From a virus: a stretch of 64,000 bases of DNA. The position numbers and the translations under genes were made by a program. Where the stretch lies: positions 1 to 64,000 of the IMG/VR virus record IMGVR_UViG_3300042465_007464. One strand, 5' to 3'. The notes under the pieces were generated by a model. The model did not search any database, was not told the origin of the DNA, and saw nothing but the letters and a program-made list of their open reading frames with translations. This document shows, piece after piece, positions 217 through 20,125 of this stretch (its first letter is position 1; every line of letters starts with the position of its first letter).

Positions 217-924
217 TTAGTTTTGTAATTGAACTAACCAATAAGTTGAATCAAAATCCGAACCAGTAAAATCAATACGAGCCAATCCTTCTGTTGATAC
301 TTGTAAATGTCCAGCATCCCCACGATTTGCTACCAATATTTCTTTCAATTTGTCTGCTGAAAAACAAGTTGGCTCGATATCAACATTACCACCATCCATT
401 TCAAATGAAATATTATCTGCATTTACTGTGGTATAATTGATAATAAATTTAATTTTACCTCCTTGAACTTGAATTGCAAAGTTTTTAGCATCAGGCAACG
501 CATTTTTTGCTTTGATGAACTTGCTAATGAATTCTTCATTGATTGGAATTGTTACTCCATAATCTGGTTCTGCGTTAATGCTTGGTACTGCAGGAATAAC
601 CGTTGTGTCAGCTAACATGAATGTTGCTTGCGTGTTATTTTCTGAAATTTTCATTGCATAATTCTTACCAGCCGCGTCTTTTACTTCGATGTTGATATTT
701 TCACCCAACGCTCCAAGCATTTTTGTCAATGCTCCGGTATGATTAATTCCCAATGAACCTTTCATGAACGGAGTTGTTTTCCATTGAATCTTTCCTACTA
801 CGGTTTGATCCATATCGATTAATTCACAACCGATACCTGTTTCATTTTCCTTAAGGATAACAGCCTCGCAATTACCTGCTAAATAGTATCGGCTGATGAA
901 TGATGTTAGTTTTGATTTTTCCAT
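217..924 (-). CDS. DNA polymerase sliding clamp (T4 gp45-like)
   Basis: 235 aa with an alternating beta/alpha pattern and a C-terminal 'STEGLARIDF...YWLV' typical of clamps; lies in the replication block. Confidence 0.75.
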   Translation of the reverse strand: MEKSKLTSFISRYYLAGNCEAVILKENETGIGCELIDMDQTVVGKIQWKTTPFMKGSLGINHTGALTKMLGALGENINIEVKDAAGKNYAMKISENNTQATFMLADTTVIPAVPSINAEPDYGVTIPINEEFISKFIKAKNALPDAKNFAIQVQGGKIKFIINYTTVNADNISFEMDGGNVDIEPTCFSADKLKEILVANRGDAGHLQVSTEGLARIDFTGSDFDSTYWLVQLQN

Positions 925-937
925 GTTTATTTATCTA

Positions 938-2200
938 TTAAAATTTAAAGAATTTATTGAAGTTTTCTGCATCTGTGGTTGAAATACTGCTACCACCGAA
1001 TTTTTTATACGTATTGATGTATTTTTCGTAGGTTTGGAATGCTGCATCTGGATCTGCAAACATTTCATGCAAAGAAAGAATTACATCATACAAATCTTTT
1101 GGCACTACTGTTTCTAACAACTCTACGTGACTATCAACTAGTTGATTGATGTCTTTTGCTGCTTCAACATATAGATGCGTATTATGAACTACCATTCTTG
1201 GCATAGCTTCTTGACTGTAACGATCCAATCCTTTTGGTGTTTTACCACCAAGCAAATCATATGTAAAGTCTTTACAAGCCGGACAATTGATGCTACAAGC
1301 AACATGTTGATTCAAATCAACTTCGCTTTGAACTGTCTTACCTTGTTTGATATGATTCTTTCTGCGATACTCAGCATTCTTTGGAAAATACAATTCCGAG
1401 AATGTTTGCGTTTTGAAATTGGTAGAATGTAAATATGTTCCAAATACTGGATATTGTCCTGGAGACGATGAATCCGTAGTTACATAAATACGATTTCCAT
1501 AATTCTTATTGATTAGTTTTTGCAACGTAGACAATATGAAGAAATCTGATATTTTGCTAATTCCTAACAAGTGAATAAATTCATTGCGTGGATTTTCAAA
1601 TTCGCGAGAGTTAAGAAGCAATGCAACCGCATACATAAAGTCTACTAATCGTTGCGGACCTCCAATCGCCCAACCATTAAAGTTAAAGTGTTTGAATTTG
1701 TTATACCACCAGGAATACTCAGCCGAGTTGGATCCTTGCAACATGTTCAAGAATTTTGTCTTACCACTTTGATGCTTTTCAAACCAAGCAAAGTTATCAA
1801 AACTAATATCCGCACATTCTGCGAATTTATTGCGATACTTGGTTTTAGGCGGAATATCTAAATTTGCTGCGACATCACTATTCGCTTCCAACCAATGAAA
1901 AATCTTTTCACGCAATTCATTGCTATAAGGCAATGCTCCTGTTGCTATCTGATAACCACCAGAGTCGCCAAATACTAGCACATCTTTTTCTAGTCCCAAT
2001 TGTTCGCGGAAATCCATTTTCTTGTAATGATGTCCTGCGGTAATTAGGAAATACGGATGTCGCCATTCTTCCGGATATCGTGAATCATAAAATTTGACAG
2101 GCGTACCATCTTCAAACTTTTGATCCTTTTTGAATGCCGAAACCATACTTCCTGCCGATAAAGAAGGAAAGTATATAAATCTTTTTTGTTCTTCGTTCAT
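938..2200 (-). CDS. dpdA: TGT-fold transglycosylase, probably DpdA-type DNA deazaguanine transglycosylase
   Basis: TGT motifs DSGGYQ, LDIPP, LQG, WAIGG, HLLG, DSSS and Zn ligands CxxxCxxC...HN; clustered with folE/queD/queE. Confidence 0.82.
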   Translation of the reverse strand: MNEEQKRFIYFPSLSAGSMVSAFKKDQKFEDGTPVKFYDSRYPEEWRHPYFLITAGHHYKKMDFREQLGLEKDVLVFGDSGGYQIATGALPYSNELREKIFHWLEANSDVAANLDIPPKTKYRNKFAECADISFDNFAWFEKHQSGKTKFLNMLQGSNSAEYSWWYNKFKHFNFNGWAIGGPQRLVDFMYAVALLLNSREFENPRNEFIHLLGISKISDFFILSTLQKLINKNYGNRIYVTTDSSSPGQYPVFGTYLHSTNFKTQTFSELYFPKNAEYRRKNHIKQGKTVQSEVDLNQHVACSINCPACKDFTYDLLGGKTPKGLDRYSQEAMPRMVVHNTHLYVEAAKDINQLVDSHVELLETVVPKDLYDVILSLHEMFADPDAAFQTYEKYINTYKKFGGSSISTTDAENFNKFFKF

Positions 2201-3207
2201 TATTTATATTCCTTAAGTTTATTAATTAAGTTCCTTGCTGAAAAGAAATTGTGATGCAATGTTGCAACTAATTCTGCAATTTCTTGAGTTAAATCTCGTT
2301 GTTCATATTCTAAAATAGCTTGAATGGCTTCATCTACTGAATTGGCACGTTTCCACATATCACCATACATTTCTTTGTATGATAAACGATTTGGAACTAT
2401 CGGTGCCGTACCGGCACAAGCCGCTTCATACATAGAAATTCCTAATGTCTCTTGTTCTGCAAAAGATACAGCAAATCTGGAACGACGAAGCAATTCGTGA
2501 TATTCTGTTTTAGATACGCCCATGTTCATTGGCACTACAAAAGTATAATCACTCAATTCAGGCCTTTGCGATAATTCTTCAAATAAATCTAAACGTTTCT
2601 CCGGAGCAATGCGATGCGGGAAGATTATCATGTTATCTTTGGAAGTAAACTTCGTGGGATGAATTAAATCTTTTGTATACTCCATTGGCCAACCCGTTTG
2701 ATAATATAAACCAGGATGCGTTTGTGTGATTAATTCATAATGTGCGTCAGATGCCAACCAATTGAAATCCAATGCGGATACAAACGACTTCTCAGCATGG
2801 CGTATCCAGGTTTTATCTTGCACGAGACGCCCCAAAAAGTCATTTGGATCATATGAACCCGCGTGCCATAGTCCGTGCATTACAACGGGAATATTTAGAA
2901 GTACACTCATATATTTTACATTGATGATACCTGGATGCCAAGCGTCTGTAAAAATTATATGGTCTCCTGCTTTAATTTCGCCTTGGGTAAACATGTACGA
3001 CAAAGAATGAACTTGTTTTGCCTTGTACATATTAGTACCACCGAAATTCAAAAATGCACCGGGAGTTGTTGCTGATGGGATATCTAAATCTCCTTCTACT
3101 ACAACTACATCAAATCCGTTTTCTCGTAACAATTTCGGGATGTGCGTTTTCCACTCACAAGTATAACGAGTTGGAACTGATTCTAAATCTACTAAAAATA
3201 TTCTCAT
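2200..3207 (-). CDS. GT-B glycosyltransferase (GT4-like)
   Basis: FPHRIAPEK and ETLGISMYEA (ExxGxxxxEA) GT-B signatures; start and stop overlap the neighbouring genes. Confidence 0.88.
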   Translation of the reverse strand: MRIFLVDLESVPTRYTCEWKTHIPKLLRENGFDVVVVEGDLDIPSATTPGAFLNFGGTNMYKAKQVHSLSYMFTQGEIKAGDHIIFTDAWHPGIINVKYMSVLLNIPVVMHGLWHAGSYDPNDFLGRLVQDKTWIRHAEKSFVSALDFNWLASDAHYELITQTHPGLYYQTGWPMEYTKDLIHPTKFTSKDNMIIFPHRIAPEKRLDLFEELSQRPELSDYTFVVPMNMGVSKTEYHELLRRSRFAVSFAEQETLGISMYEAACAGTAPIVPNRLSYKEMYGDMWKRANSVDEAIQAILEYEQRDLTQEIAELVATLHHNFFSARNLINKLKEYK

Positions 3208-3554
3208 CGTTCTATTATTGCACCGTTTTCAAAATCTTCAAATACTTCTACTTTGTATAAACTAGGAAAACTTTCCAATAACCATTCTCCAATCATCTCG
3301 CAAGACATGGATCCAAATTCCAATACATTTGTTTCAGAACCAGTAAATCCAATTCGAAGCCCCTTTTGTATTTTGCGATTCAACAAAATAAATTCTTCGT
3401 CACGATCCGTATGGGTTACCGTTGCATAACAACGAAATCCAAACATGTGTCTATGTCTATCTGATAAGAATGCTACTTCAGGAAAAATGTCTTTAGCATC
3501 AGGCCAATTATGAAAGCCTTCAATACTAAATGTAACTACTACACTATATTTCAT
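3204..3554 (-). CDS. dpdL: QueD-paralogous T-fold protein, DpdL-like (putative 7-carboxy-7-deazaguanine decarboxylase)
   Basis: Has LSDRHRHMF (LxxxHRHxF) in place of the QueD CxxxHGH motif, plus SCEM and a terminal V-x-E-D-x-E-N-G. The motif matches my recollection of the DpdL signature. Confidence 0.7.
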   Translation of the reverse strand: MKYSVVVTFSIEGFHNWPDAKDIFPEVAFLSDRHRHMFGFRCYATVTHTDRDEEFILLNRKIQKGLRIGFTGSETNVLEFGSMSCEMIGEWLLESFPSLYKVEVFEDFENGAIIER

Positions 3555-3559
3555 AACTT

Positions 3560-3588
3560 ATTATAATGAATTTATCTATTTATTCCAA
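3560..3588 (-). promoter_or_regulatory. sigma70-like early/middle promoter TTGGAA-N17-TATAAT driving dpdL-GT-dpdA-clamp-dut
   Basis: Read directly from the sequence; the same architecture with an exact 17-nt spacer recurs at 7 other gene starts. Confidence 0.7.
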
Positions 3589-3601
3589 CCGTTGTAACAG
3601 T

Positions 3602-3633
3602 AAAAAAGTGCTAATATTTCTACTAGCACCTTT
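3602..3633 (-). terminator. Intrinsic terminator
   Basis: GGTGCTAGTA-GAAA-TATTAGCACT followed by a T-tract. Confidence 0.75.
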
Positions 3634-3649
3634 AAATTTTTTATCGAAA

Positions 3650-4084
3650 TTAAATTAAATCGTCAGAATCTGGTTGATATTCCGTAACATATTCATCTTC
3701 ATCTTCATCGCAATATGCATCTACGATTCCACCCAAATGTGAACGCATTTCTTGCCATGCATTTTTACTTCTAGCTTGCATTTTATCTAATAATGCCGGC
3801 GCTTCTTGTACTAATGCATATACTGAATATGGTGCTGGTTTTTTTCTATCAGTCCATCGTTTCATTTGTTGAATAGCATGTTGTACAATTCGAAGATCTT
3901 CCATTTTTGGACGAATTAATTCGTCCGCTAAATCTTCAGCTGCACTCATTATATCGTCCGAGTTATTATATGATGCCTTTTTAGCAAATTGTAAATAACT
4001 TGGATCTGGTGATTCATTTAGATTTTTAGTTCCAAATCTGCGCATATTTTCTTTTAATAATTTTTTCAATTTAATATTTGTCAT
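3650..4084 (-). CDS. Hypothetical protein with leader LKENMRRFGTKNLNE (putative internal head protein)
   Basis: Start re-assigned to the ATG at 4084 because AAAGGA and the ATATTTATA motif lie just upstream; leader shared with 20229..20594. Confidence 0.7.
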   Translation of the reverse strand: MTNIKLKKLLKENMRRFGTKNLNESPDPSYLQFAKKASYNNSDDIMSAAEDLADELIRPKMEDLRIVQHAIQQMKRWTDRKKPAPYSVYALVQEAPALLDKMQARSKNAWQEMRSHLGGIVDAYCDEDEDEYVTEYQPDSDDLI

Positions 4085-4088
4085 TTTA

Positions 4089-4168
4089 GTATCCTTTTTT
4101 GTATAAATATCAAGCAAAAAAAAAATCGTATCCTTTTTTGTATAAATATCAAGCAAAAAAAAAAAATC
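4089..4168. repeat. Tandem duplication (39 + 41 nt) of late-promoter motif plus RBS
   Basis: gtatccttttttgtataaatatcaagc(A)n-tc occurs twice, with A-runs of 10 and 12. Confidence 0.9.
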
Positions 4169-6671
4169 ATTTTCCAAATGAAAAGAATCGTGCCGCATTA
4201 TTATTTTCTGGAAACTTACCCCAATTCAATGCAGCATAAAAGTCATCCAATTTGTTTTGCAATTCTCGTTGAAATATTTTGTTTCTGTCAATGAATTGTT
4301 CTACAAATTCTTGAGTTGGTTGTGGGTCTTGATATCCACGAAGCGCCATTGTATCGAATCCATATGGATTATCTGATAGGTATGCCCATTTAACTTTTTC
4401 ACCGTCTTGTATTGGATCGATATCAGTTACTTTGTTAGCAACTAACAAATCGTTGTAATTCATTGCGGCTTTAACATGTGCTGGAGTTCCTGATTTATAT
4501 CCACCGAACGGTTTACGTCCTTTAACATACTTGGATATTTCTTTTACTCCGGAATTTTTCATTACGTTCAATACCGGTGAATTTTTCAATCCAGATTTGA
4601 ATTTATGAATCATATCCGATGTAGATGTTTTATCTCGTTGTTTCAATATGTACCACAATGTTTCTTTCATGATAGTTTTGAAATCTTCTGGGAAACTAGA
4701 TCTTACAACGTCCAATCCTTTAATGTCTAACTTATCCGTAGGTTTACCTTCTTTGAAAATTACCCATTGTGCATATCGTTTTTTGGCAATCCATAAACCA
4801 GATTTTGCAACATATTCCTGTTTAATTTTGAATCGATGCGTTTCTGTATTGTGGAATTTCAATGAATATGGAGTATACATTTTGTTTACTAATGCTTGTA
4901 CCTCAGATGCAATTGCATTGGTTTGGTCAATCATAAATTGTTCATCCGTTTCATCGTAATCTGGATATCGTTTCGCAATCAATGGCAAACTAGAAACAAA
5001 CGTGGAATCTGTATCTGTATAAAATGCAAATTCTGCAGTTCCACCCGTTGCATTGATAAAATGTTCTTTGCCAATTTCTTGTGTGTAATGATTGTTAATC
5101 ACTTTTGCTGAAAACTTAATTACTGCTTGACCCGTTGACGTAATTGCACCTGCATTATCCAAGTCATGGAATCGGAACGTTTTAAGACCTAATACTCCAT
5201 AAAATGAATTAAGCAATACTTTTTGTGTTAACTGCAACGCATCATAAAATTTATAATCTTCGGATCCTACTTCATATTCATCGCGTTTATCTTTGTATTC
5301 GACACGTTCATCAAACCATTTTTCCAGGATAGTTGGTAAGAATCCACGAACATCGGTTCTATATACTGCTCCGTTACTTGCAACTGTATAAGCATTGTCT
5401 TGCAACCAAGTTTTAACATCTTGTGCAAATGTTCCATCAATGAATTGAACTTGCTGTGGTTCCGTTTTCAATAATAAGTCTTGATTCCAATTGTTTATTA
5501 CCGTAACTTTGGTTTCCGGCGAAATGTTCAATGTCATGATGATGCTTGGATATAGTGACGTTAAATCTAAGTCATATATCCATTTGTATAATCCTGGAAC
5601 TGGTGCCATTACATATGCACCTGCTAAATCATCAATTGATTCTTCTTCTACAAATCTAAATTGTTTGTTAGGTGCTACTAATCCGTTGCGTTTCAAATCC
5701 ACAACTGCCGCTCCATCCAAGTATTTAGATGCGTAATAAACATCTTCATATGGAACGTGTCCTTTATGACATATTGTACGTGCAAGATTCAACAATTGAA
5801 GTTTTTCATCTAAATCATAAACCAAATCAACGTCAGTCATGTTGTATTCGACAAACTTGTCAATATCCGTTGCAAATAGATGATTCAAATCTCCTTCATA
5901 TTCAACTTTACCACGATTCAATTCTTTTTTAGCAACCGTGTCTAATCGGTAATTTGCAAGTTCTGTATATGTAAATTTCTTATACAATGTCAAATAGTCT
6001 AAACTAGATACTCCAAATATTTTGTAGCGTCCTCTATGTTTATTCCATTCAACAATTCCTGCAGGAGATAATTTCTTTATGGCTTGTGCGCCTAATACAT
6101 TTTTAATGCGATTAATCAAGTATGGAATATCGTAATTGTCTGTATTCCATCCGGAAATAACGGTAGGTTGTACTTCTGCGAATATATTAATGAATCGCAT
6201 CAACATGTTAGCTTCTGTATCAAATACTTCTACATTTTCTACGGATACTTTTTGTGTTAATCGTTTTTCCGCATCTAATAGCAATACACCTTTTCTTTTA
6301 CCTGCTTTGTCGTGGTATGCTATTGATGTAATTCGTATACGTGCTTCTTCTGGTGTTGAATAGCCGTTTTCATCTCGTTCTGATTCAATATCAAAAAAGA
6401 AATCTCTATGTCCGCGAGATGGGGCATCTGATTCGTAATATAAATCAATAAGCGTTCTAACTTCTTCATTTAAGTCAGATTCGTATGCTTTTGGGTTGTC
6501 CTTGTGATTGCCAGCAACTTTGCTTAATATTGCCCCATCCAATGAACGGCAATCTCCGTTTGCATCAGGCAAATATGCGTATGGTTTGAACAAGAACTTT
6601 TGATGTCCTACTTCATCATCCCACACGTGCATCGTGCTAGTTTTTTTATCGTATGCTATATTTTGATACAT
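4167..6671 (-). CDS. Family B DNA polymerase (T4 gp43-like)
   Basis: Exonuclease motifs DIE, WNxxxYD and YNxxD; polymerase motifs DLTSLYPS, KxxLNSxYG, YTDTDS and KKRY. Confidence 0.97.
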   Translation of the reverse strand: MYQNIAYDKKTSTMHVWDDEVGHQKFLFKPYAYLPDANGDCRSLDGAILSKVAGNHKDNPKAYESDLNEEVRTLIDLYYESDAPSRGHRDFFFDIESERDENGYSTPEEARIRITSIAYHDKAGKRKGVLLLDAEKRLTQKVSVENVEVFDTEANMLMRFINIFAEVQPTVISGWNTDNYDIPYLINRIKNVLGAQAIKKLSPAGIVEWNKHRGRYKIFGVSSLDYLTLYKKFTYTELANYRLDTVAKKELNRGKVEYEGDLNHLFATDIDKFVEYNMTDVDLVYDLDEKLQLLNLARTICHKGHVPYEDVYYASKYLDGAAVVDLKRNGLVAPNKQFRFVEEESIDDLAGAYVMAPVPGLYKWIYDLDLTSLYPSIIMTLNISPETKVTVINNWNQDLLLKTEPQQVQFIDGTFAQDVKTWLQDNAYTVASNGAVYRTDVRGFLPTILEKWFDERVEYKDKRDEYEVGSEDYKFYDALQLTQKVLLNSFYGVLGLKTFRFHDLDNAGAITSTGQAVIKFSAKVINNHYTQEIGKEHFINATGGTAEFAFYTDTDSTFVSSLPLIAKRYPDYDETDEQFMIDQTNAIASEVQALVNKMYTPYSLKFHNTETHRFKIKQEYVAKSGLWIAKKRYAQWVIFKEGKPTDKLDIKGLDVVRSSFPEDFKTIMKETLWYILKQRDKTSTSDMIHKFKSGLKNSPVLNVMKNSGVKEISKYVKGRKPFGGYKSGTPAHVKAAMNYNDLLVANKVTDIDPIQDGEKVKWAYLSDNPYGFDTMALRGYQDPQPTQEFVEQFIDRNKIFQRELQNKLDDFYAALNWGKFPENNNAARFFSFGK

Positions 6672-7938: not shown

Positions 7939-7991
7939 GTTATTATGTATTTAATTTGATAATCTCCAAATGTAGTTGTCGTCGTCCACAT
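7932..7991 (-). CDS. Putative 19-aa micro-ORF MWTTTTTFGDYQIKYIITW
   Basis: Its ATG overlaps the queE stop (TGATG) and its stop overlaps the trx start (ATGGTGA). Confidence 0.4.
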   Translation of the reverse strand: MWTTTTTFGDYQIKYIITW

Positions 7992-8761
7992 CATACTCCC
8001 CTTTTTGTGTCCCAGGCCACGATATGGTCTCTACCTGTCATGTTGTATCCATGTTCGGCACACATTTCAAATACCAACGGATACATTTTAATCAATTCTT
8101 CTCGCGTATCGCCAGCTGGCATAATGTATGTCTTATCTCGTGGAATTTCTAAGAATAAGCGTGCCTCTTCAATTTCTTGTAAATTTTCTTCTGTACCATC
8201 CCATACCGGTTTATAATGGTAGTCTGTATGATATTCAATCATAGCACTCATTGCTGAGTAGTTCAAGCGATGTTTGTTATGTTGCGTAACCATCTTTTCA
8301 TCCGTAATTGTCCCTTGCGGCGTAGCAACACCCACCCTGGGAACGCTATTACTAAACTTAGGGCTAAGGGAAATAAGCCCAATAGGATAATCAGTCGCAA
8401 TAAAATGCGACCCTTCAGTCTCAATAGTGATAAGAATATCTCTTTCATGTGCAAAGTGTGTTAATTCGTTTACTAATGTCGGGTGCATCGTTGGACTACC
8501 ACCCGTTAACATCATTTCTTTAATATGTGGATTCTTATCATAAATATTGATGATATCATTAAATGTAAACGTACCTTTCTCCGGATGAATACTTGTGTAC
8601 CAACTATCACACCAACCTCCTTCGCCAAACCAACAACGATGTGTACATCCTGTAGTTCTAACTGCTATGGTAGGTCTGCCGAATCTTGAGCCTTCGCTTT
8701 GCACACATCGATACAATTCTACGATAGGCAATGTTTTATTGTAATCTTCTATTCTTTTCAT
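7991..8761 (-). CDS. queE: 7-carboxy-7-deazaguanine synthase (radical SAM)
   Basis: VQSEG, RTTGCTHRCWFGEGGWCDS (expanded CxxxC...C), TGGSP, IETEG and SLSPK; start at the ATG of MKRIED. Confidence 0.93.
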   Translation of the reverse strand: MKRIEDYNKTLPIVELYRCVQSEGSRFGRPTIAVRTTGCTHRCWFGEGGWCDSWYTSIHPEKGTFTFNDIINIYDKNPHIKEMMLTGGSPTMHPTLVNELTHFAHERDILITIETEGSHFIATDYPIGLISLSPKFSNSVPRVGVATPQGTITDEKMVTQHNKHRLNYSAMSAMIEYHTDYHYKPVWDGTEENLQEIEEARLFLEIPRDKTYIMPAGDTREELIKMYPLVFEMCAEHGYNMTGRDHIVAWDTKRGV

Positions 8762-8762
8762 A

Positions 8763-9125
8763 TCAAAATGGTAAATCGTCATCTTCCTCTACTGTCTGTG
8801 GAGTTTCTGAAGTTTCTGTTTTATTAAAATATTCATCTAAGAATCCGCGTTCATACAACATGATTTTTCCTTTGTATGAAGTTGTATCAACTTCAGCTAC
8901 ATCTGTTTTAGCTCCAACTGATTTTGCGTAATCATATATTTTAGCACCTACACCTGTTGCGGGAGTCCGTTTACCTAAATATTCAAATACAGAAATCATT
9001 TCCGTTGAACGGTCGTATGTTGTAACGTTTGCGATATCCGTTACGATTTCGCCATCAATCGGTGTTGCTGTCAATGTATACAACATTCCATTTTCTTGCC
9101 AACTGGCTACTGTTCTATTCTTCAT
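8763..9125 (-). CDS. Hypothetical protein ending in SSB-type acidic tail EDDDLPF
   Basis: Fills the queD-queE gap; probable start MKNRT at 9125. Confidence 0.7.
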   Translation of the reverse strand: MKNRTVASWQENGMLYTLTATPIDGEIVTDIANVTTYDRSTEMISVFEYLGKRTPATGVGAKIYDYAKSVGAKTDVAEVDTTSYKGKIMLYERGFLDEYFNKTETSETPQTVEEDDDLPF

Positions 9126-9591
9126 ATATACTTGAATTGTTATCGTTTTCAAAACATTCTACTTTGATGCATTTGCAACGTCCGGCATCCGTTTTCTCTA
9201 AAACTTCATTGAATTTATCATAAACCAATTTAGCACAAGATTCTGCACCCATTTTATCCATTACACGTAATGAACATAAACCTTCCATTGCCGCAGATTC
9301 AAAGAAATCTAAATATGGGTCATCTTTCTCAATTAACAAGGTATGATCCCACATATAATCCATCCAATCTTTCAAACCATTGCCTTTTGGTGGTGTTTTG
9401 AAACCACCATAATCAACTATCCAATTCATATCATCTAGTTGATTTTCTTCTAATGGTTCGTTCGATGCAAACCATACTTTAAATTTTAATGCGTATCCAT
9501 GTAAAAGCTCACAGTGTGAGTGAGATGCTCTCCATTGTCTTAAAGCAACGGAATAGTTTTCAAATAGTTTTGTTGAAATGTATCTTGCCAT
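9115..9591 (-). CDS. queD: 6-carboxytetrahydropterin synthase
   Basis: CELLHGY, WIVDYG, WDHT, GAE and terminal E-N-D-N-N-S. Confidence 0.93.
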   Translation of the reverse strand: MARYISTKLFENYSVALRQWRASHSHCELLHGYALKFKVWFASNEPLEENQLDDMNWIVDYGGFKTPPKGNGLKDWMDYMWDHTLLIEKDDPYLDFFESAAMEGLCSLRVMDKMGAESCAKLVYDKFNEVLEKTDAGRCKCIKVECFENDNNSSIYEE

Positions 9592-9859: not shown

Positions 9860-10279
9860 TTATTTCGATGTTATTGTGTCGTGTTGATAATCTTCTGGTT
9901 TGGACGTTTGCATAGAACATTTAACTACATTGTAAGTAGTAAATGGACGTGTAACTATTTTTACGATGTCATGTTTTTTCAACATTTCTAATTCCGGACA
10001 ATCCAATGATAACATAATGCGACAACGATTAAATATTGTAGGTGGAATCGTTTTCATTAATTCTGGAGTAGTTTCAAGCGTAACAATTTGTTTATTTTCT
10101 AAACACAATTCAATCACAGTCCACATTGTACTTGTTACCTTTTCTAAATAACTTATACAAAAATAAACGTGTGGATAAAACTCAGCTTCATCGGGGACTG
10201 TGGTCCGAACAAAACAAGTTTCTACATCTGCTAATGGTCCTTCAGTTTCTTTACCGAAAAAGTATGGCTTTCCAAACAT
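9860..10279 (-). CDS. Hypothetical protein within the deazaguanine cluster
   Basis: Start re-assigned to MFGKPY at 10279, just downstream of promoter 10292-10320. Confidence 0.7.
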   Translation of the reverse strand: MFGKPYFFGKETEGPLADVETCFVRTTVPDEAEFYPHVYFCISYLEKVTSTMWTVIELCLENKQIVTLETTPELMKTIPPTIFNRCRIMLSLDCPELEMLKKHDIVKIVTRPFTTYNVVKCSMQTSKPEDYQHDTITSK

Positions 10280-10291
10280 ATTTTTTATTTT

Positions 10292-10320
10292 AATATAATG
10301 AATTTTCTTTGATATTCCAA
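10292..10320 (-). promoter_or_regulatory. Early/middle promoter TTGGAA-N17-TATATT
   Basis: Recurrent motif with a 17-nt spacer. Confidence 0.65.
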
Positions 10321-11232
10321 TCACCATCTCAGATAACTTCGAACAAATGGTTCGTCTCCTGTTCGTTCAACACTTTCTGCAAAAGCACGTTCAAAGTCTG
10401 AAGCGTGATATTCATGCGTCCATACCCAATCTAAATCAAATATCGAATTAGATAACGATGCCGCACGTTCCATGCACATTTTAAAGTTTGTAGTTCTCGG
10501 AGACGGAAATATGAACATGTAATTGTTCCATAATTCTTTGAAGAAATTAGTTTGAATGTCAGCATCGAATGATGCAGCTAAACATATAACGGCACCGGTA
10601 TCAGCAATTTGCATTATGTCATCATACACAGATGCCTTGCCGGTTAATTCTACAATGTTTTTAAACTTGATGCCTAATTCTTTTATTTGATGCATTGTTA
10701 CTTGTTTAGCACCTAATGCGTTCCATTGCGTTGCGTTATGCGTACCAATTACATAAATTTCAAGCATCGGATTCATCAATCGCATATATTGTGCTGCAAT
10801 GTTAGAAACAAAGCCAGATCCTATAAACAATATGCGATTACCATGTGCATGTTCATACATTTGATGTCCGATGTTAACAGAACAAGCAACTGGTTCAATA
10901 ATATTTTTTGGAGTCACTGAATCTACATGAACTGTATTGATTTCCGTTGCATAAAACCATTGTGAATATGCTGGGTCGCAACGCGATGCTACTAAATCAC
11001 CTACTACGAAATCACGTATCTTATCACCAACACGTGCAACTCGACCCAATGATTCATGTCCAAAATGTCCAAACGGTATTCCAATTTTACCTAAATACTG
11101 GTCTATATCGCTACGACAAATTCCTGTATAAATGGATTCAATCAACATTTCATTTGGTTGCATTTCGCCCAAATCATATTCATATTCGCGAATTTCACGA
11201 TTTCCGTAGCTGTGTAGTATTTTAGTTTTCAT
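10321..11232 (-). CDS. Zn-dependent medium-chain dehydrogenase (MDR family)
   Basis: GICRSD, GHESLG, GD-x-V, EPVAC and Rossmann IGSGFV; lacks the structural-Zn loop. Confidence 0.88.
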   Translation of the reverse strand: MKTKILHSYGNREIREYEYDLGEMQPNEMLIESIYTGICRSDIDQYLGKIGIPFGHFGHESLGRVARVGDKIRDFVVGDLVASRCDPAYSQWFYATEINTVHVDSVTPKNIIEPVACSVNIGHQMYEHAHGNRILFIGSGFVSNIAAQYMRLMNPMLEIYVIGTHNATQWNALGAKQVTMHQIKELGIKFKNIVELTGKASVYDDIMQIADTGAVICLAASFDADIQTNFFKELWNNYMFIFPSPRTTNFKMCMERAASLSNSIFDLDWVWTHEYHASDFERAFAESVERTGDEPFVRSYLRW

Positions 11233-12175
11233 TGATTAACGTTTTTATTAAAGTTGTGCAATCTTCCGTTTTCATGCTTCGTATTGTATCTTGTATCATT
11301 TCATCACAATACACGTTGTATTCATATGAAGCCGAATCCATTTCCATGTTCATGTATTCTACTAACATGTATTCATATGCCGATTCCGGACATAATCCAG
11401 TTTCAAATTTAATGCGAGAACCATCATTGAATTTCAAATTCCACGAAATGTAATCTTTTGGAACATCCATCTTCCAAGTTGCTGCACAACGTATTTGACA
11501 ATTTCCATGACGCGTTTCATAATAACATTGATCTTCAACATCATAAGTTCCGTTAGGATCGTAATTGCCCCATGTAGTTGCTGCTAAATCTGACAATTCA
11601 TAATGCTGATAACGATATGCCTTTTCATCAGCCGTTGTGCTAATGTAAGAAGTATTTAAAATACCACAAACCACACTTAACAAATGTGGTAACAAATCTA
11701 AATGAACTCCACCCATTGCTTTGGAACGTGTGGTAAACCAACTACCAGGTCCTGGTACTCTGTCTCGATTCACCCACAATAAATCTATTCCAACAAGTTT
11801 ATGTCTAAATGATTGAAATGACATCGTCTCATCGCGGAACATGTTGTTCTTTACCATGAAGATTGCATGTTTCGGATAATTGGTTCGAAACTGTCTCCAA
11901 TCCATTAAACTAGCAAATCCGGGTTTTTCTACAACAATTCTTTTAGTATGTATCGTTAACGCTTTAGCAATGGATTCATGCGTATAATTAGGTGTGCAAA
12001 TAATTGCCATATCATACCTAATTGCTAACGGTATATCCGTTACATCAGCATAATCTGCGTTACATGAAGGATTTGGATCGACTGTCGTAACGTGCCAACC
12101 CAAATCTTCGCAAACGCCTTGATATAGGCGACCCATACCTAAACCTACAACAAGAACTTGTTTAGACTTTGCCAT
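11222..12175 (-). CDS. Gfo/Idh/MocA family oxidoreductase
   Basis: VGLGMG, ICTPNYTH, VEKP, and W...GGVHLDLLPH. Confidence 0.9.
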   Translation of the reverse strand: MAKSKQVLVVGLGMGRLYQGVCEDLGWHVTTVDPNPSCNADYADVTDIPLAIRYDMAIICTPNYTHESIAKALTIHTKRIVVEKPGFASLMDWRQFRTNYPKHAIFMVKNNMFRDETMSFQSFRHKLVGIDLLWVNRDRVPGPGSWFTTRSKAMGGVHLDLLPHLLSVVCGILNTSYISTTADEKAYRYQHYELSDLAATTWGNYDPNGTYDVEDQCYYETRHGNCQIRCAATWKMDVPKDYISWNLKFNDGSRIKFETGLCPESAYEYMLVEYMNMEMDSASYEYNVYCDEMIQDTIRSMKTEDCTTLIKTLINEN

Positions 12176-12869
12176 ATCCTTTTATAAATTCATAAAATTC
12201 AAATCGAGTACTAGATTCATCCATAAATGCTCCGGACAATTTCGCAGTTTTCATTGAAGCACCACCATGCTTAACTCCACGACATTGTACACAGTTATGC
12301 GTAGCTTCAATCATTACAGCAACACCTTTGTTATCTTCAATCAACTCACTGATTGCGTGATGAATTGCTACTGTTAATTGTTCTTGAATTGCACCACGTC
12401 TGCCAAATGTTTCTACAACACGATTCAATTTACTCAATCCAATCACATTGCCATTTTCTGCTGGAATATACGCAACATGGACGAGTCCTAAAATGGTCTG
12501 ATGATGATGACTACACATGGAAGTTAATGGAATACCTCCTTCAAATACAATACCATCATATCCATCACTTGGAAATGCCGTTATTCCTGACATCGGGTTG
12601 TATCTACCAGCCCATAAATCATTTACATATGCTTTTGCAACTCTACGTGGAGTATCTGCTGAGTTAGGATCTTGTTCCCAAGCTACACCTAATGCACGTA
12701 AAAATTCACCATAATGGTGTGCTGCATTATCAATAATTTCTTGCTTTTCTTCTTGCGTTAATTCGGCATCTGGTCCGAATATTGTTTGTTTAACTGCTAA
12801 TTGCGTTGAAATACCATTAGCAAAACCAGATTGAACTAGTTCTAAGTTTTTTCTTTGTTTATCTGTCAT
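12162..12869 (-). CDS. folE: GTP cyclohydrolase I
   Basis: TPRRVAK, SMCSHH, GLSKLNR, IQEQLT and HNCVQCRG. Confidence 0.97.
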   Translation of the reverse strand: MTDKQRKNLELVQSGFANGISTQLAVKQTIFGPDAELTQEEKQEIIDNAAHHYGEFLRALGVAWEQDPNSADTPRRVAKAYVNDLWAGRYNPMSGITAFPSDGYDGIVFEGGIPLTSMCSHHHQTILGLVHVAYIPAENGNVIGLSKLNRVVETFGRRGAIQEQLTVAIHHAISELIEDNKGVAVMIEATHNCVQCRGVKHGGASMKTAKLSGAFMDESSTRFEFYEFIKGYGKV

Positions 12870-12887
12870 AACTTATTTATTACTTTA

Positions 12888-13672
<785 letters not shown>

Positions 13673-19324: not shown

Positions 19325-20125
19325 TTAATTGAATAAATCATTAAATGCTGATGCAACGTCGTCTACTTTAGGAGCAGGTGCTGATTTTTTTGCTGGAGCT
19401 GGACTTTGTGCTTCATCTTCATCTTCATCATCCGATGTTGATGCGGCGTTTGCTGGAGCTGCTACGTCTGCATCTGCAGTTTCTGGATTCATCCATTCTT
19501 GCAATGCTTGTTCCAACTCATCATATGAAGGCTCAGGAAACAAATCAGTAATTTCTGGTTGATTCATGATTTTTTCAGCAATTGCTTTATCGTCAGTTGC
19601 TGGTTGTGTGTTAGGTTTAACACGAATTGATGTTTTTGGATAATTCGCTCCTTCTGCTGGAGTAAATTCTACATCAATATCACGTCCATTCATTAGGTCC
19701 GTAATGTCACCATAATCTGGATCTGAAATGATTGAAAGCAATTCAGTGTAAATTTGCTTTCCGAATCCCCAAAACTTAACTCCTTCAGCTTCTTTACCAC
19801 GAATGATAACAGGAACATAAGTTCTCATTTTAGGTTCGATTTTACGACCCATCAACCATTCATCTTTGTCGCCGGTTTTCTTAAGTTTGTCTGCGAATTC
19901 TACGATTGGATCTGCGTTGCCAAAAGTAATTGGAGATAACATTGATCTTTTACCAATGTCGTAATGAAAATACAATTCCAAGAACGGATTGTCTTTTCTG
20001 TGTACGTAAGGTACAATTCTAATACGTGTCTTACCTGCTTCAGGTTTCCACAAATTTTGTTTTTTGTCATCAGCCTTGTTCAACTGATTCAGTTTCGCTT
20101 TAATAGCGTCCAAGTTAAGTGCCAT
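19325..20125 (-). CDS. Single-stranded DNA-binding protein (T4 gp32-like)
   Basis: W.P..GK..IRIVP, FWGFGK, D...G.D and an acidic tail ending FNDLFN. Confidence 0.88.
   Translation of the reverse strand: MALNLDAIKAKLNQLNKADDKKQNLWKPEAGKTRIRIVPYVHRKDNPFLELYFHYDIGKRSMLSPITFGNADPIVEFADKLKKTGDKDEWLMGRKIEPKMRTYVPVIIRGKEAEGVKFWGFGKQIYTELLSIISDPDYGDITDLMNGRDIDVEFTPAEGANYPKTSIRVKPNTQPATDDKAIAEKIMNQPEITDLFPEPSYDELEQALQEWMNPETADADVAAPANAASTSDDEDEDEAQSPAPAKKSAPAPKVDDVASAFNDLFN

Follow-up and report, generated by a model that had tools for sequence, protein, structure and literature searches.

The replicative DNA polymerase of bacteriophage T4, gp43, docks to the sliding clamp gp45 via a C-terminal peptide of the LDFLF type, and interchangeable gp45-binding peptides of this type are common to gp43, gp55, gp33, and the DNA ligase. 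The literature agrees in this respect with the original prediction, which had started from a gp45-binding C-terminal peptide of T4-type gp43 common to other clamp clients. The T4 alpha-glucosyltransferase also binds gp45, and modification concomitant with replication has been proposed for it (Sommer et al. 2004; PMC13216743); according to the more recent report, however, expression level rather than gp45 binding mainly sets the modification ratio (PMC13216743, 2026). Among cellular proteins, DNMT1 is linked to PCNA, and consensus motifs have been described for the PIP box and for beta-clamp binding (QL[SD]LF). The uracil glycosylase UNG2 is a PCNA client acting on bases.

The transglycosylases DpdA1-DpdA4 and bDpdA belong to the TGT superfamily, occur together with FolE/QueD/QueE-type genes, and insert 7-deazaguanines into DNA after replication (Hutinet 2019; Cui 2023). 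Their modification densities differ between subfamilies, from under 0.1% to 100%, and DpdA3 of phage phiST replaces all G. Neither DpdA3 nor DpdA4 could be made to work in E. coli (Cui et al. 2023). In the DpdA literature that we searched, no link between DpdA and a sliding clamp was found. Here we analyzed 64,000 nucleotides of viral DNA (the window; positions 1 to 64,000 of IMG/VR record IMGVR_UViG_3300042465_007464), in which a DpdA-type enzyme and the DNA polymerase end in similar peptides. The clamp, dpdA, glycosyltransferase, DpdL-like, polB, queE, queD, and folE genes described below, and the segments within them, all lie on the minus strand.

The dpdA gene and its neighborhood

The ORF at 938..2200, with its stop codon at 938-940, encodes a protein of 420 aa that we assigned to the DpdA-type DNA guanine transglycosylases by its fold, DSGG motif, Zn site, and context. 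In an alignment of 57 diverse homologues, D79, S80, G81, G82, D115, and D243 were invariant. The catalytic D-S-G-G motif (residues 79-82; 1955..1966), located by this alignment, aligns with DSG[GS]FQ of arcTGT and TGT; a catalytic Asp in D-S-G-G-[FY]-Q is accompanied by a second conserved Asp, D243. The family consensus C-x3-C-P-x-C ... H-N has the Zn-site pattern, and this stretch is the best profile match to the zinc subdomain of arcTGT and TGT. Consistently, the matches of the 57-sequence profile to arcTGT and bacterial TGT fall on the DSGG motif as well as on the Zn site. As modeled by AF2 (pLDDT 91), the protein is a (beta/alpha)8 barrel of the TGT fold, with Foldseek hits to arcTGT and to bacterial and human TGT (E = 2e-9 to 7e-8, probability 1.0). 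It is predicted from sequence and model to exchange guanine in DNA for 7-deazaguanine.

Relationships to the described DpdA groups were distant. TIGR00432 (arcTGT) gave a weak match (E = 7.5e-4), no Pfam or PHROG match was obtained (PF01702 and PF20314 were absent at E <= 0.01), none of the PADLOC DpdA models matched, and tblastn did not find the DpdA3 of phiST, Campylobacter, or Flavobacterium at E up to 5. By the profiles tried and tblastn, the protein appears to belong to a subfamily outside bDpdA and DpdA1-4. This family has 782 matches among 50%-identity cluster representatives, includes the Pseudomonas aeruginosa jumbo phage PA5oct, and is unannotated in the isolates examined. The DNA of PA5oct, whose DpdA is of the long form, is restriction-resistant, consistent with modified G (PMC12191111).

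The genomic context was that of a 7-deazaguanine pathway. Within 12 kb of dpdA lie the precursor genes for FolE (GTP cyclohydrolase I, 12162..12869; phrog_2197, E = 7e-62), QueD (9115..9591; phrog_2389, E = 4e-32), QueE (7991..8782; NCBIfam QueE models, E = 7e-15), and a DpdL-like QueD paralogue (3204..3554; phrog_17812). The last has 40% identity to phiST CGPG_00067, which was named DpdL and predicted to be a CDG decarboxylase (Cui et al. 2023). Related DpdA loci likewise encode 7-deazaguanine precursor genes. With the TGT fold, the invariant DSGG motif, the Zn site, and this context, the annotation as DpdA was borne out. A GT-B type glycosyltransferase (2200..3207; Pfam Glycos_transf_1, phrog_4356) is a constant companion, its homologues adjoining DpdA in nearly all related loci; its own C-terminus is without the motif discussed below.

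The replication genes on both sides were examined as well. The ORF at 217..924 encodes a gp45/PCNA-type sliding clamp of 235 aa, as supported by profile, AF2, and Foldseek comparisons: a 33-sequence profile matches RB69 gp45 (1b77, E = 2e-6) and T4 gp45 (1czd, 6.5e-5), and the model (pLDDT 95) shows the two-domain protomer fold of PCNA and gp45 (Foldseek TM 0.70-0.81, probability 1.0). The clamp annotation, too, was upheld. The dpdA stop codon is separated by 13 nt from the start of the clamp ORF, which confirms the earlier claim that dpdA lies immediately upstream of the clamp gene. A dUTPase gene, adjoining the clamp on its downstream side, marks the beginning of the window, and in relatives candidate clamp-loader genes lie downstream of the clamp. 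The polymerase is a T4-type family B enzyme (PolB, 834 aa, 4167..6671) that matches phrog_262 across residues 2-818 (E = 2e-177) as well as the Pfam models for DNA_pol_B and the exonuclease domain; its identity is 45% to PolB of Microcystis phage Mel-JY01, the nearest isolate, and about 31% to cyanophage gp43. In Mel-JY01 the clamp gene directly follows polB, so the modification cassette here sits between two replication-module neighbors. The dpdA gene adjoins the clamp gene in many related lineages, but adjacency alone is weak evidence for a functional link.

The C-terminal tails in this genome

The last eight residues of DpdA are N-F-N-K-F-F-K-F, encoded at 941-964, and PolB (stop codon at 4167-4169) ends in N-A-A-R-F-F-S-F-G-K, encoded at 4170-4199. 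By conservation and position profile, the putative docking motif of DpdA spans residues 411-420 (941..970) with the core h-x-x-F-F-x-F. It follows a variable linker (residues 401-410; 971..1000) that has low pLDDT and is unconserved in the family consensus; residues 405-410 have pLDDT below 50, as in a disordered segment. The PolB tail (4170..4199; core h-x-x-F-F-x-F-G-K) lies beyond the conserved body of the enzyme and is conserved in relatives. DpdA carries, on a flexible segment at its C-terminus, a short hydrophobic/aromatic motif of the kind found in clamp clients, and the cognate replicative polymerase carries the same motif.

The original prediction held that both tails fit N-x-x-[RK]-F-F-x-F. 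In the proteome of the 109.6-kb genome (126 ORFs) this pattern occurred exactly twice, at the C-termini of DpdA and PolB, confirming the claim, while composition predicts 0.018 occurrences anywhere and 2e-4 at C-termini. Four ORFs, against 1.2 expected, have FF among their final six residues. Two of the four are DpdA and PolB, and another encodes an endonuclease with a tail that is conserved in three relatives.

AF2 modeled residues 411-417 of DpdA as a short, low-confidence helix, in line with a linear motif. The same helix could also mean that the tail serves DpdA itself, through packing or through dimerization, since TGT-family enzymes act as dimers, and that it has converged with the polymerase tail on an amphipathic peptide of a generic kind, F, K, and N codons being favored by the AT-rich phage genome. 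We regard this as quite improbable, considering that the tail has low pLDDT and stands behind a disordered linker of variable length, and in view of its distribution among relatives.

Distribution and covariation of the tail among relatives

Among 121 diverse full-length homologues of 30-48% identity, 88 had FF, LF, MF, YF, or FW among their six C-terminal residues, compared with a background of 7% of internal windows; about 27% of the short-form homologues were without the motif. In 321 fetched loci the motif was present on 143/153 PolB, 158/231 DpdA, and 1/196 clamp proteins, and on 139 of 3632 other ORFs (3.8%). Over hundreds of lineages, this amounts to a 10- to 20-fold enrichment relative to either background. 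The low frequency on neighboring ORFs, which share the codon bias, argues against an origin of the motif from codon usage, on which a role within DpdA itself would draw. Position -3 of the core was hydrophobic in 88% of PolB and 52% of DpdA proteins, and positions -2 and -1 were almost never hydrophobic, with N and K the commonest residues there in both proteins. The motif is kept while the linker varies, in 88/121 short and 48/57 long forms. Conservation across very distant homologues means that the loss of the tail in DpdA relatives, which would have spoken against the original prediction, was not observed.

Covariation of the DpdA and PolB tails in related phages had also been proposed as a check, and it was observed. 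In lineages defined as 55% identity clusters, the core type agreed in 15/15 cases (12 FF/FF and 3 LF/LF), although this number overstates independence because the switch from FF to LF may reflect few evolutionary events. The clearest case is the lineage L166, where DpdA ends in K-K-I-N-N-L-F-K-F and PolB in K-K-I-N-S-L-F-K-F. Similarity between tails of the same genome was 16.5, compared with 10.8 +/- 1.5 for shuffled pairings (permutation p = 7e-4), and covariation was seen within the FF lineages alone (p = 0.004-0.008). The resemblance of the two tails might in principle be a matter of chance or amino-acid composition, as the motifs are short and their residues are rich in AT codons. With 2e-4 terminal matches expected, the 10- to 20-fold enrichment, and the permutation result, such an origin is contradicted and hardly credible.

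The long DpdA subfamily (495-600 aa), which includes PA5oct EST35_0316, carries a PolB-like F-x-x-L-F-[DE] block internally, 30-40 residues before the end, in 84% of proteins (48/57). This block is the best match to the tail of the own PolB in 35/48 of them, and covariation within genomes beyond the shared consensus was not detected in this subfamily (p = 0.14-0.67). In PolA-type loci, DpdA ends in x-L-F at the extreme C-terminus in 6/6 cases; the end E-L-S-L-F of one of them (L253) is close to the bacterial beta-clamp motif QL[SD]LF, and the other five are looser. Proteins resembling beta clamps are encoded 1-2 genes downstream in 2/6 of these loci, an assignment resting on language-model look-alikes and one sub-threshold Pfam match (E = 0.07). 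Judged from the encoded proteins, the tail type of DpdA was shown to change with the type of replication machinery, and it covaries with both polymerase tail and clamp type, with few independent switches. The DpdA ends in PolA and beta-clamp-like loci can be summarized as x-L-x-L-F. In gp45-type phages, the beta-type motif Q-L-E-L-F is found at the end of a glycosyltransferase-like protein, so a simple rule of one tail type for each clamp type does not fit.

Packing or dimerization within DpdA would not make the tail track the cognate polymerase tail or the polymerase/clamp type, nor does it suit a motif that can be internal with 30 further residues after it. The dependence on clamp type is likewise not predicted if the tail is a regulatory signal, a C-terminal degron or timing element placing polymerase and DpdA under joint control. 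Hydrophobic C-termini can be protease tags in bacteria, but such a signal is without precedent in polymerases of the T4 type, where the tail has clamp binding as its defined role, and we consider it very improbable.

Another possibility is that the tail docks DpdA and PolB to a different shared replisome partner, such as the gp32-like SSB, the helicase or its loader, or the clamp loader. The clamp is named as the partner solely by homology with T4/RB69, and a related peptide, F-N-D-L-F-N, stands at the end of the phage's own gp32-like SSB (19325-20125), so more than one replisome protein uses an aromatic tail. On the other hand, both experiments and structures define the equivalent T4/RB69 polymerase tail as a ligand of gp45, and the motif is built like PIP-type clamp ligands, h-x-x-aromatic-aromatic. 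It also shifts toward the beta-clamp consensus in PolA phages with beta-clamp-like genes, and dpdA adjoins the clamp gene in many lineages. A partner other than the clamp is therefore unlikely.

Proposed clamp docking in the light of known systems

The most likely reading of these comparisons is that the DpdA tail is a clamp-docking motif coupling base exchange to replication, and we consider it a probable one. By homology with T4/RB69 gp43, the PolB tail would insert into a hydrophobic pocket of the gp45/PCNA-type clamp; given this homology and its PolB-like tail, DpdA most probably belongs among the clients of the phage clamp. Its last ten or so residues would work as a flexible linker followed by a docking motif of a hydrophobic residue, two polar ones, F-F, x, and F. 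Recruited by clamps loaded onto phage DNA during its replication, and held by them on the duplex, the enzyme would exchange guanine for 7-deazaguanine soon after synthesis, preferentially on phage DNA. We infer clamp binding, replication coupling, and an effect on modification density or selectivity from homology and tail comparisons. The original prediction also had DpdA riding the clamp processively, G densely replaced in this phage, and self discriminated from non-self; these, too, are effects that we infer the arrangement could have.

Clamp docking might even, more tentatively, be a general organizing principle of phage DNA hypermodification, as a replication tool-belt. DpdA would then bear the tail of the polymerase encoded with it or, in PolA phages, a tail of the beta-clamp type, and the DNA methyltransferases and the LicD-, QueC-, DUF5591-, and glycosyltransferase-like enzymes of some lineages would be tailed likewise, so that the clamp would bring modification enzymes to nascent phage DNA only. 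The tail of one DNA methyltransferase, in lineage L114, is nearly identical to that of the PolB of the same lineage; along with the endonuclease of this genome, it speaks for clamp docking of DpdA as well. If general, such docking would make it possible to distinguish self from non-self without sequence motifs and to replace a base almost completely.

A clamp-docking tail offers a concrete, testable answer to how phage DpdA finds phage DNA and why modification density varies. It also suggests that heterologous DpdA tests may fail because the cognate clamp is absent. The large family, which includes PA5oct with its modified G, provides models that can be cultivated. Should the tail function as proposed, it would be a simple handle to engineer replication-coupled DNA modification and a sequence signature for new DNA-modifying enzymes in phage genomes.

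Compared with phiST, the locus shows both likeness and difference. It is reminiscent of the phiST DpdA3 cassette in its DpdL-like gene and in a dUTPase or MazG-type pyrophosphatase gene close by, whereas the window DpdA has 420 aa with a tail and DpdA3 of Cellulophaga phage phiST has 259 aa without one. Because the phiST enzyme replaces all G without a tail, a tether is unnecessary for complete G replacement, which tempers the clamp reading.

The T4 alpha-glucosyltransferase resembles the DpdA proposal in being a phage DNA-modifying enzyme physically bound to the phage clamp. It glucosylates hmC, whereas DpdA exchanges the whole base and is a different enzyme class, and the available part of PMC13216743 names no polymerase-like tail motif for it. 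According to that report, its contact with gp45 does not chiefly determine how much modification occurs, an observation that also tempers the clamp reading of DpdA.

Like the clients with PIP-box or beta-clamp motifs, DpdA would be a modifying or base-excising enzyme brought to new DNA by a linear motif. DNMT1, UNG2, and the QL[SD]LF proteins, however, are cellular, their motif is often N-terminal or internal, and none is a deazapurine-inserting transglycosylase. The closest parallel is with T4 and RB69 gp43. Here, too, a family B polymerase has a flexible linker at its C-terminus with a short hydrophobic/aromatic peptide, in the position of the gp45-binding tail of T4 gp43, and this peptide is reused, as in the T4 set, by unrelated DNA enzymes of the same phage. 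Even the internal placement in the long DpdA subfamily has a counterpart in the loop of the T4 ligase. The core differs, h-x-x-F-F-(x-F) against L-D-F-L-F of T4, and is nearer to the second half of the PIP box. The described T4 clamp clients do not include a base-exchange enzyme, and DpdA is a candidate for this role here.

Gene identities and the common C-terminal motif

The source genome is a single contig of 109.6 kb, of which the window covers the first 64 kb, and the minus strand encodes all of its genes considered below. DpdA (938–2200, 420 aa) ends in N-F-N-K-F-F-K-F, encoded at 941–964, and the polymerase PolB (4167–6671, 834 aa) ends in N-A-A-R-F-F-S-F-G-K, encoded at 4170–4199. We found that the pattern N-x-x-[RK]-F-F-x-F matched the 126 ORFs of the genome exactly twice, both times at these C-termini, while composition predicts 0.018 matches anywhere and 2e-4 at a terminus. 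Thus, the original prediction that DpdA and PolB have a common C-terminal motif was confirmed, and chance does not account for it.

Scans of Pfam, PHROGs, PDB (phmmer) and PADLOC gave no match for DpdA or the clamp (217–924), and therefore both had to be identified through profiles and folds. A single-protein scan of IMG/VR with P0080 was also without a match; search patterns were taken from smaller alignments, and a 16-sequence alignment was too diverse. DpdA had a weak arcTGT match in NCBIfam, and a 57-sequence DpdA profile matched arcTGT and TGT (tRNA-guanine transglycosylases) at the DSGG motif and the zinc subdomain. The AF2 model of DpdA (pLDDT 91) matched TGT structures in Foldseek with probability 1.0, and D79-S80-G81-G82, D115 and D243 were invariant in the family. 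FolE, QueD and QueE were encoded near dpdA, and so was a paralogue of QueD that shares 40% identity with DpdL, the predicted CDG decarboxylase of Cellulophaga phage phiST. Considering the profile, the fold, the invariant residues and this deazaguanine gene context, the 420-aa protein is identified, by sequence and modelled structure, as a DpdA-type DNA transglycosylase. For the clamp, a 33-sequence profile matched RB69 and T4 gp45, and the AF2 model (pLDDT 95) had TM-scores of 0.70–0.81 to PCNA and gp45. Both gene identities were thus borne out, through a TGT fold and a PCNA/gp45 fold, and dpdA does lie directly upstream of the clamp gene, its stop codon standing 13 nt before ORF 217–924.

PolB is a T4-type family B polymerase (phrog_262, E = 2e-177 over residues 2–818), and because the match ends at residue 818, the last 16 residues are outside the conserved body. 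The closest isolate PolB was that of Microcystis phage Mel-JY01 (45% identity). Between polB and the gene that follows are two tandem copies of an A/T-rich sequence of ~35 bp (4087–4167), each with a long A run at its end; the second overlaps the stop codon of polB. Together they could represent a promoter or terminator element that was duplicated.

Among the profiles tried for described DpdA subfamilies, none matched the window DpdA. Membership in DpdA3 was rejected: the phiST DpdA3 has 259 aa, no detectable similarity and no tail. The family comprised 782 matches among 50%-identity representatives, including "hypothetical proteins" of Pseudomonas jumbo phage PA5oct, Sinorhizobium phage Phosso and others. 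Weakly similar TGT proteins from P. putida phage Illi-2 and Vibrio phage GR11A were set apart as another group; the tail of the Illi-2 protein is basic. A glycosyltransferase accompanied the family at nearly all loci, and most mapped loci also had a QueD paralogue resembling DpdL; in the window, the two genes span 2200–3554 (minus strand), and the paralogue is 40% identical to phiST CGPG_00067. These companions point to a base derived from 7-deazaguanine and possibly glycosylated. One metagenomic phage contig (L176:9401–12881) carried three tandem DpdA paralogues (398, 378 and 385 aa), two of them with L-F-type ends.

Conservation of the tail and covariation with PolB

FF, LF, MF, YF or FW occurred in the last six residues of 88 of the 121 full-length DpdA representatives (30–48% identity), but in only 7% of the internal six-residue windows of those proteins. 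Thus, the tail on which the original prediction depended is kept in most of the DpdA homologues compared. Over 321 loci drawn from IMG/VR, JGI metagenomes and isolates, the motif was borne by 143/153 PolB, 158/231 DpdA and 1/196 clamps, and by 3.8% of the 3632 other ORFs, a value from which it follows that AT-rich codon bias is no explanation for the motif. The third position before the aromatic pair was hydrophobic in 88% of PolB and 52% of DpdA, and the two positions directly before the pair were almost never hydrophobic in either protein, N and K being the commonest residues there. In the DpdA model, residues 401–410 formed a low-confidence linker and residues 411–417 a short low-confidence helix, and this predicted pattern is the appearance expected of a linear docking motif.

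Where both proteins were encoded in one locus, their tails were paired, and clustering at 55% identity reduced the pairs to 15 lineages. In every lineage, DpdA and PolB had the same core type (12 FF/FF and 3 LF/LF); the lineages are not fully independent, since the FF/LF split may stem from few evolutionary switches. For example, in one LF lineage (locus L166) DpdA had K-K-I-N-N-L-F-K-F and PolB had K-K-I-N-S-L-F-K-F. The similarity of tails from the same genome averaged 16.5, against 10.8 ± 1.5 for shuffled pairs (p = 7e-4), and when only the FF lineages were considered, own-genome tails still resembled each other more than shuffled pairs did, both in their flanks and in how far the motif stood from the C-terminus (p = 0.004–0.008). 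The tails of DpdA and PolB therefore co-vary across related phages. Whole-record searches of four IMG/VR records with an FF-ended DpdA found no PolB, in records only 16–27% complete.

Long forms, other polymerases and other proteins

The long DpdA subfamily (495–600 aa) ends in an acidic L-x-x-L-E-x-x-L helix. It was rejected as a counter-example, because the alignment revealed a conserved PolB-tail-like block 30–40 residues before the end. This block was present in 84% of the long forms, and in 35 of 48 it matched the PolB tail of the same genome better than any other 12-mer of the protein did; for PA5oct, the sequences are F-N-S-L-F-D within the block and F-D-S-L-F-G-W in the PolB tail. No added own-genome covariation with the PolB tail was found in this subfamily (p = 0.14–0.67), since the motif barely varies there. 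At the PA5oct locus (L238, MK797984.1 213997–233286), the long-form DpdA (EST35_0316) is annotated as "hypothetical" and the gp45-type clamp homologue (EST35_0314) as "structural protein"; a homing endonuclease interrupts the polymerase there, and 3 kb downstream is QueE. The DNA of PA5oct was reported to carry modified G (PMC12191111), with which this gene content is consistent.

Six loci encoded family A polymerases in place of PolB, and no gp45-like gene was found in them. DpdA had x-L-F at the very end in all six; the bacterial beta-clamp consensus QL[SD]LF is matched closely by the L253 end, E-L-S-L-F, and more loosely by the other five. The gene order in L253 (9995–15737) is dpdA, a 344-aa beta-clamp-like ORF (11204–12238), PolA and a delta-prime-like clamp-loader subunit. 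A homologue search with this ORF returned the query alone and PDB phmmer gave no match, so that the beta-clamp call rests on Atlas look-alikes, which are viral beta clamps, and on its only Pfam match, DNA_pol3_beta (E = 0.07). A similar candidate (L255:12119–13180, in locus 9932–13180) lies two genes downstream of dpdA. These sequences are suggestive of a DpdA tail type that changes with the replication machinery, phages with putative beta clamps included. The L253 PolA has a UDG-superfamily domain at its N-terminus. Just upstream of dpdA in L130 (8757–10010) and its relatives, a glycosyltransferase-like protein (400–417 aa) ends in Q-L-E-L-F in several lineages, a near-perfect beta-clamp motif, yet these phages encode a gp45-type clamp.

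In the source genome, an endonuclease of phrog_945, related to Holliday-junction resolvases (68290–68772, minus strand; L081:4290–4772), ends in K-T-F-F-A, and relatives at 51–76% identity retain the [KR]-F-F end; it is a candidate third client of the same docking site. Ends resembling the PolB tail of the same genome occurred as single cases in a DNA methyltransferase (L114:11930–13285, almost identical), a LicD-family protein (L166:8130–8822) and a QueC-like protein (L256:7235–8098), all on the plus strand. The gp32-like SSB of the window (phrog_1192, 19325–20125, minus strand) ends in F-N-D-L-F-N, an aromatic tail related to the PolB/DpdA motif. In the deazaguanine cluster, a 129-aa ORF (8763–9152, minus strand) that had no PHROG match ends in E-E-D-D-D-L-P-F, which resembles the tip of the C-terminus in bacterial SSB, and a 130-aa ORF near FolE and PolB in L171 ends in D-E-L-P-F. 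The product of such an ORF could imitate the interaction hub of host SSB or compete for it.

The sliding clamp as the probable docking partner

In T4 and RB69, the C-terminal peptide of the polymerase is a defined gp45 ligand, and T4 gp43 ends in L-D-F-L-F-G. In T4, gp55 and gp33 have peptides that can be exchanged with that of gp43, and T4 ligase occupies the same pocket through an internal copy. The literature thus agrees that T4-type gp43 docks to gp45 by a hydrophobic/aromatic C-terminal peptide common to other clients; a link between DpdA and a clamp was not found in the literature searched. The dpdA gene adjoins the clamp gene widely among related loci, but this adjacency is partly explained by insertion of a cassette into a polB–clamp module, and it was set aside as main evidence. 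Based on the gene identities, the conservation of the tail and its match to the PolB tail, the clamp tether was supported in part: the DpdA tail is probably a polymerase-type clamp-docking motif, judging from the sequences and models compared, in a DpdA subfamily left unmatched by the profiles tried for described ones. The original prediction went further, to processive riding of DpdA on the clamp, dense replacement of G and self/non-self discrimination. These we only infer, because phiST replaces all its G with a DpdA3 that has no such tail (Cui 2023), because the contact of T4 alpha-glucosyltransferase with gp45 is reportedly not the main determinant of modification levels (PMC13216743), and because our models are of single chains.

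As a clamp client with a linear motif, DpdA would be of a known kind, and the tail profile of DpdA and PolB is the h-x-x-aromatic-aromatic half of the PIP box. The internal clamp-binding motif of T4 DNA ligase is a precedent for the internal block of the long DpdA forms. T4 alpha-glucosyltransferase, which binds gp45 and for which action concomitant with replication was proposed (PMC13216743), is the precedent for a DNA-modifying client.
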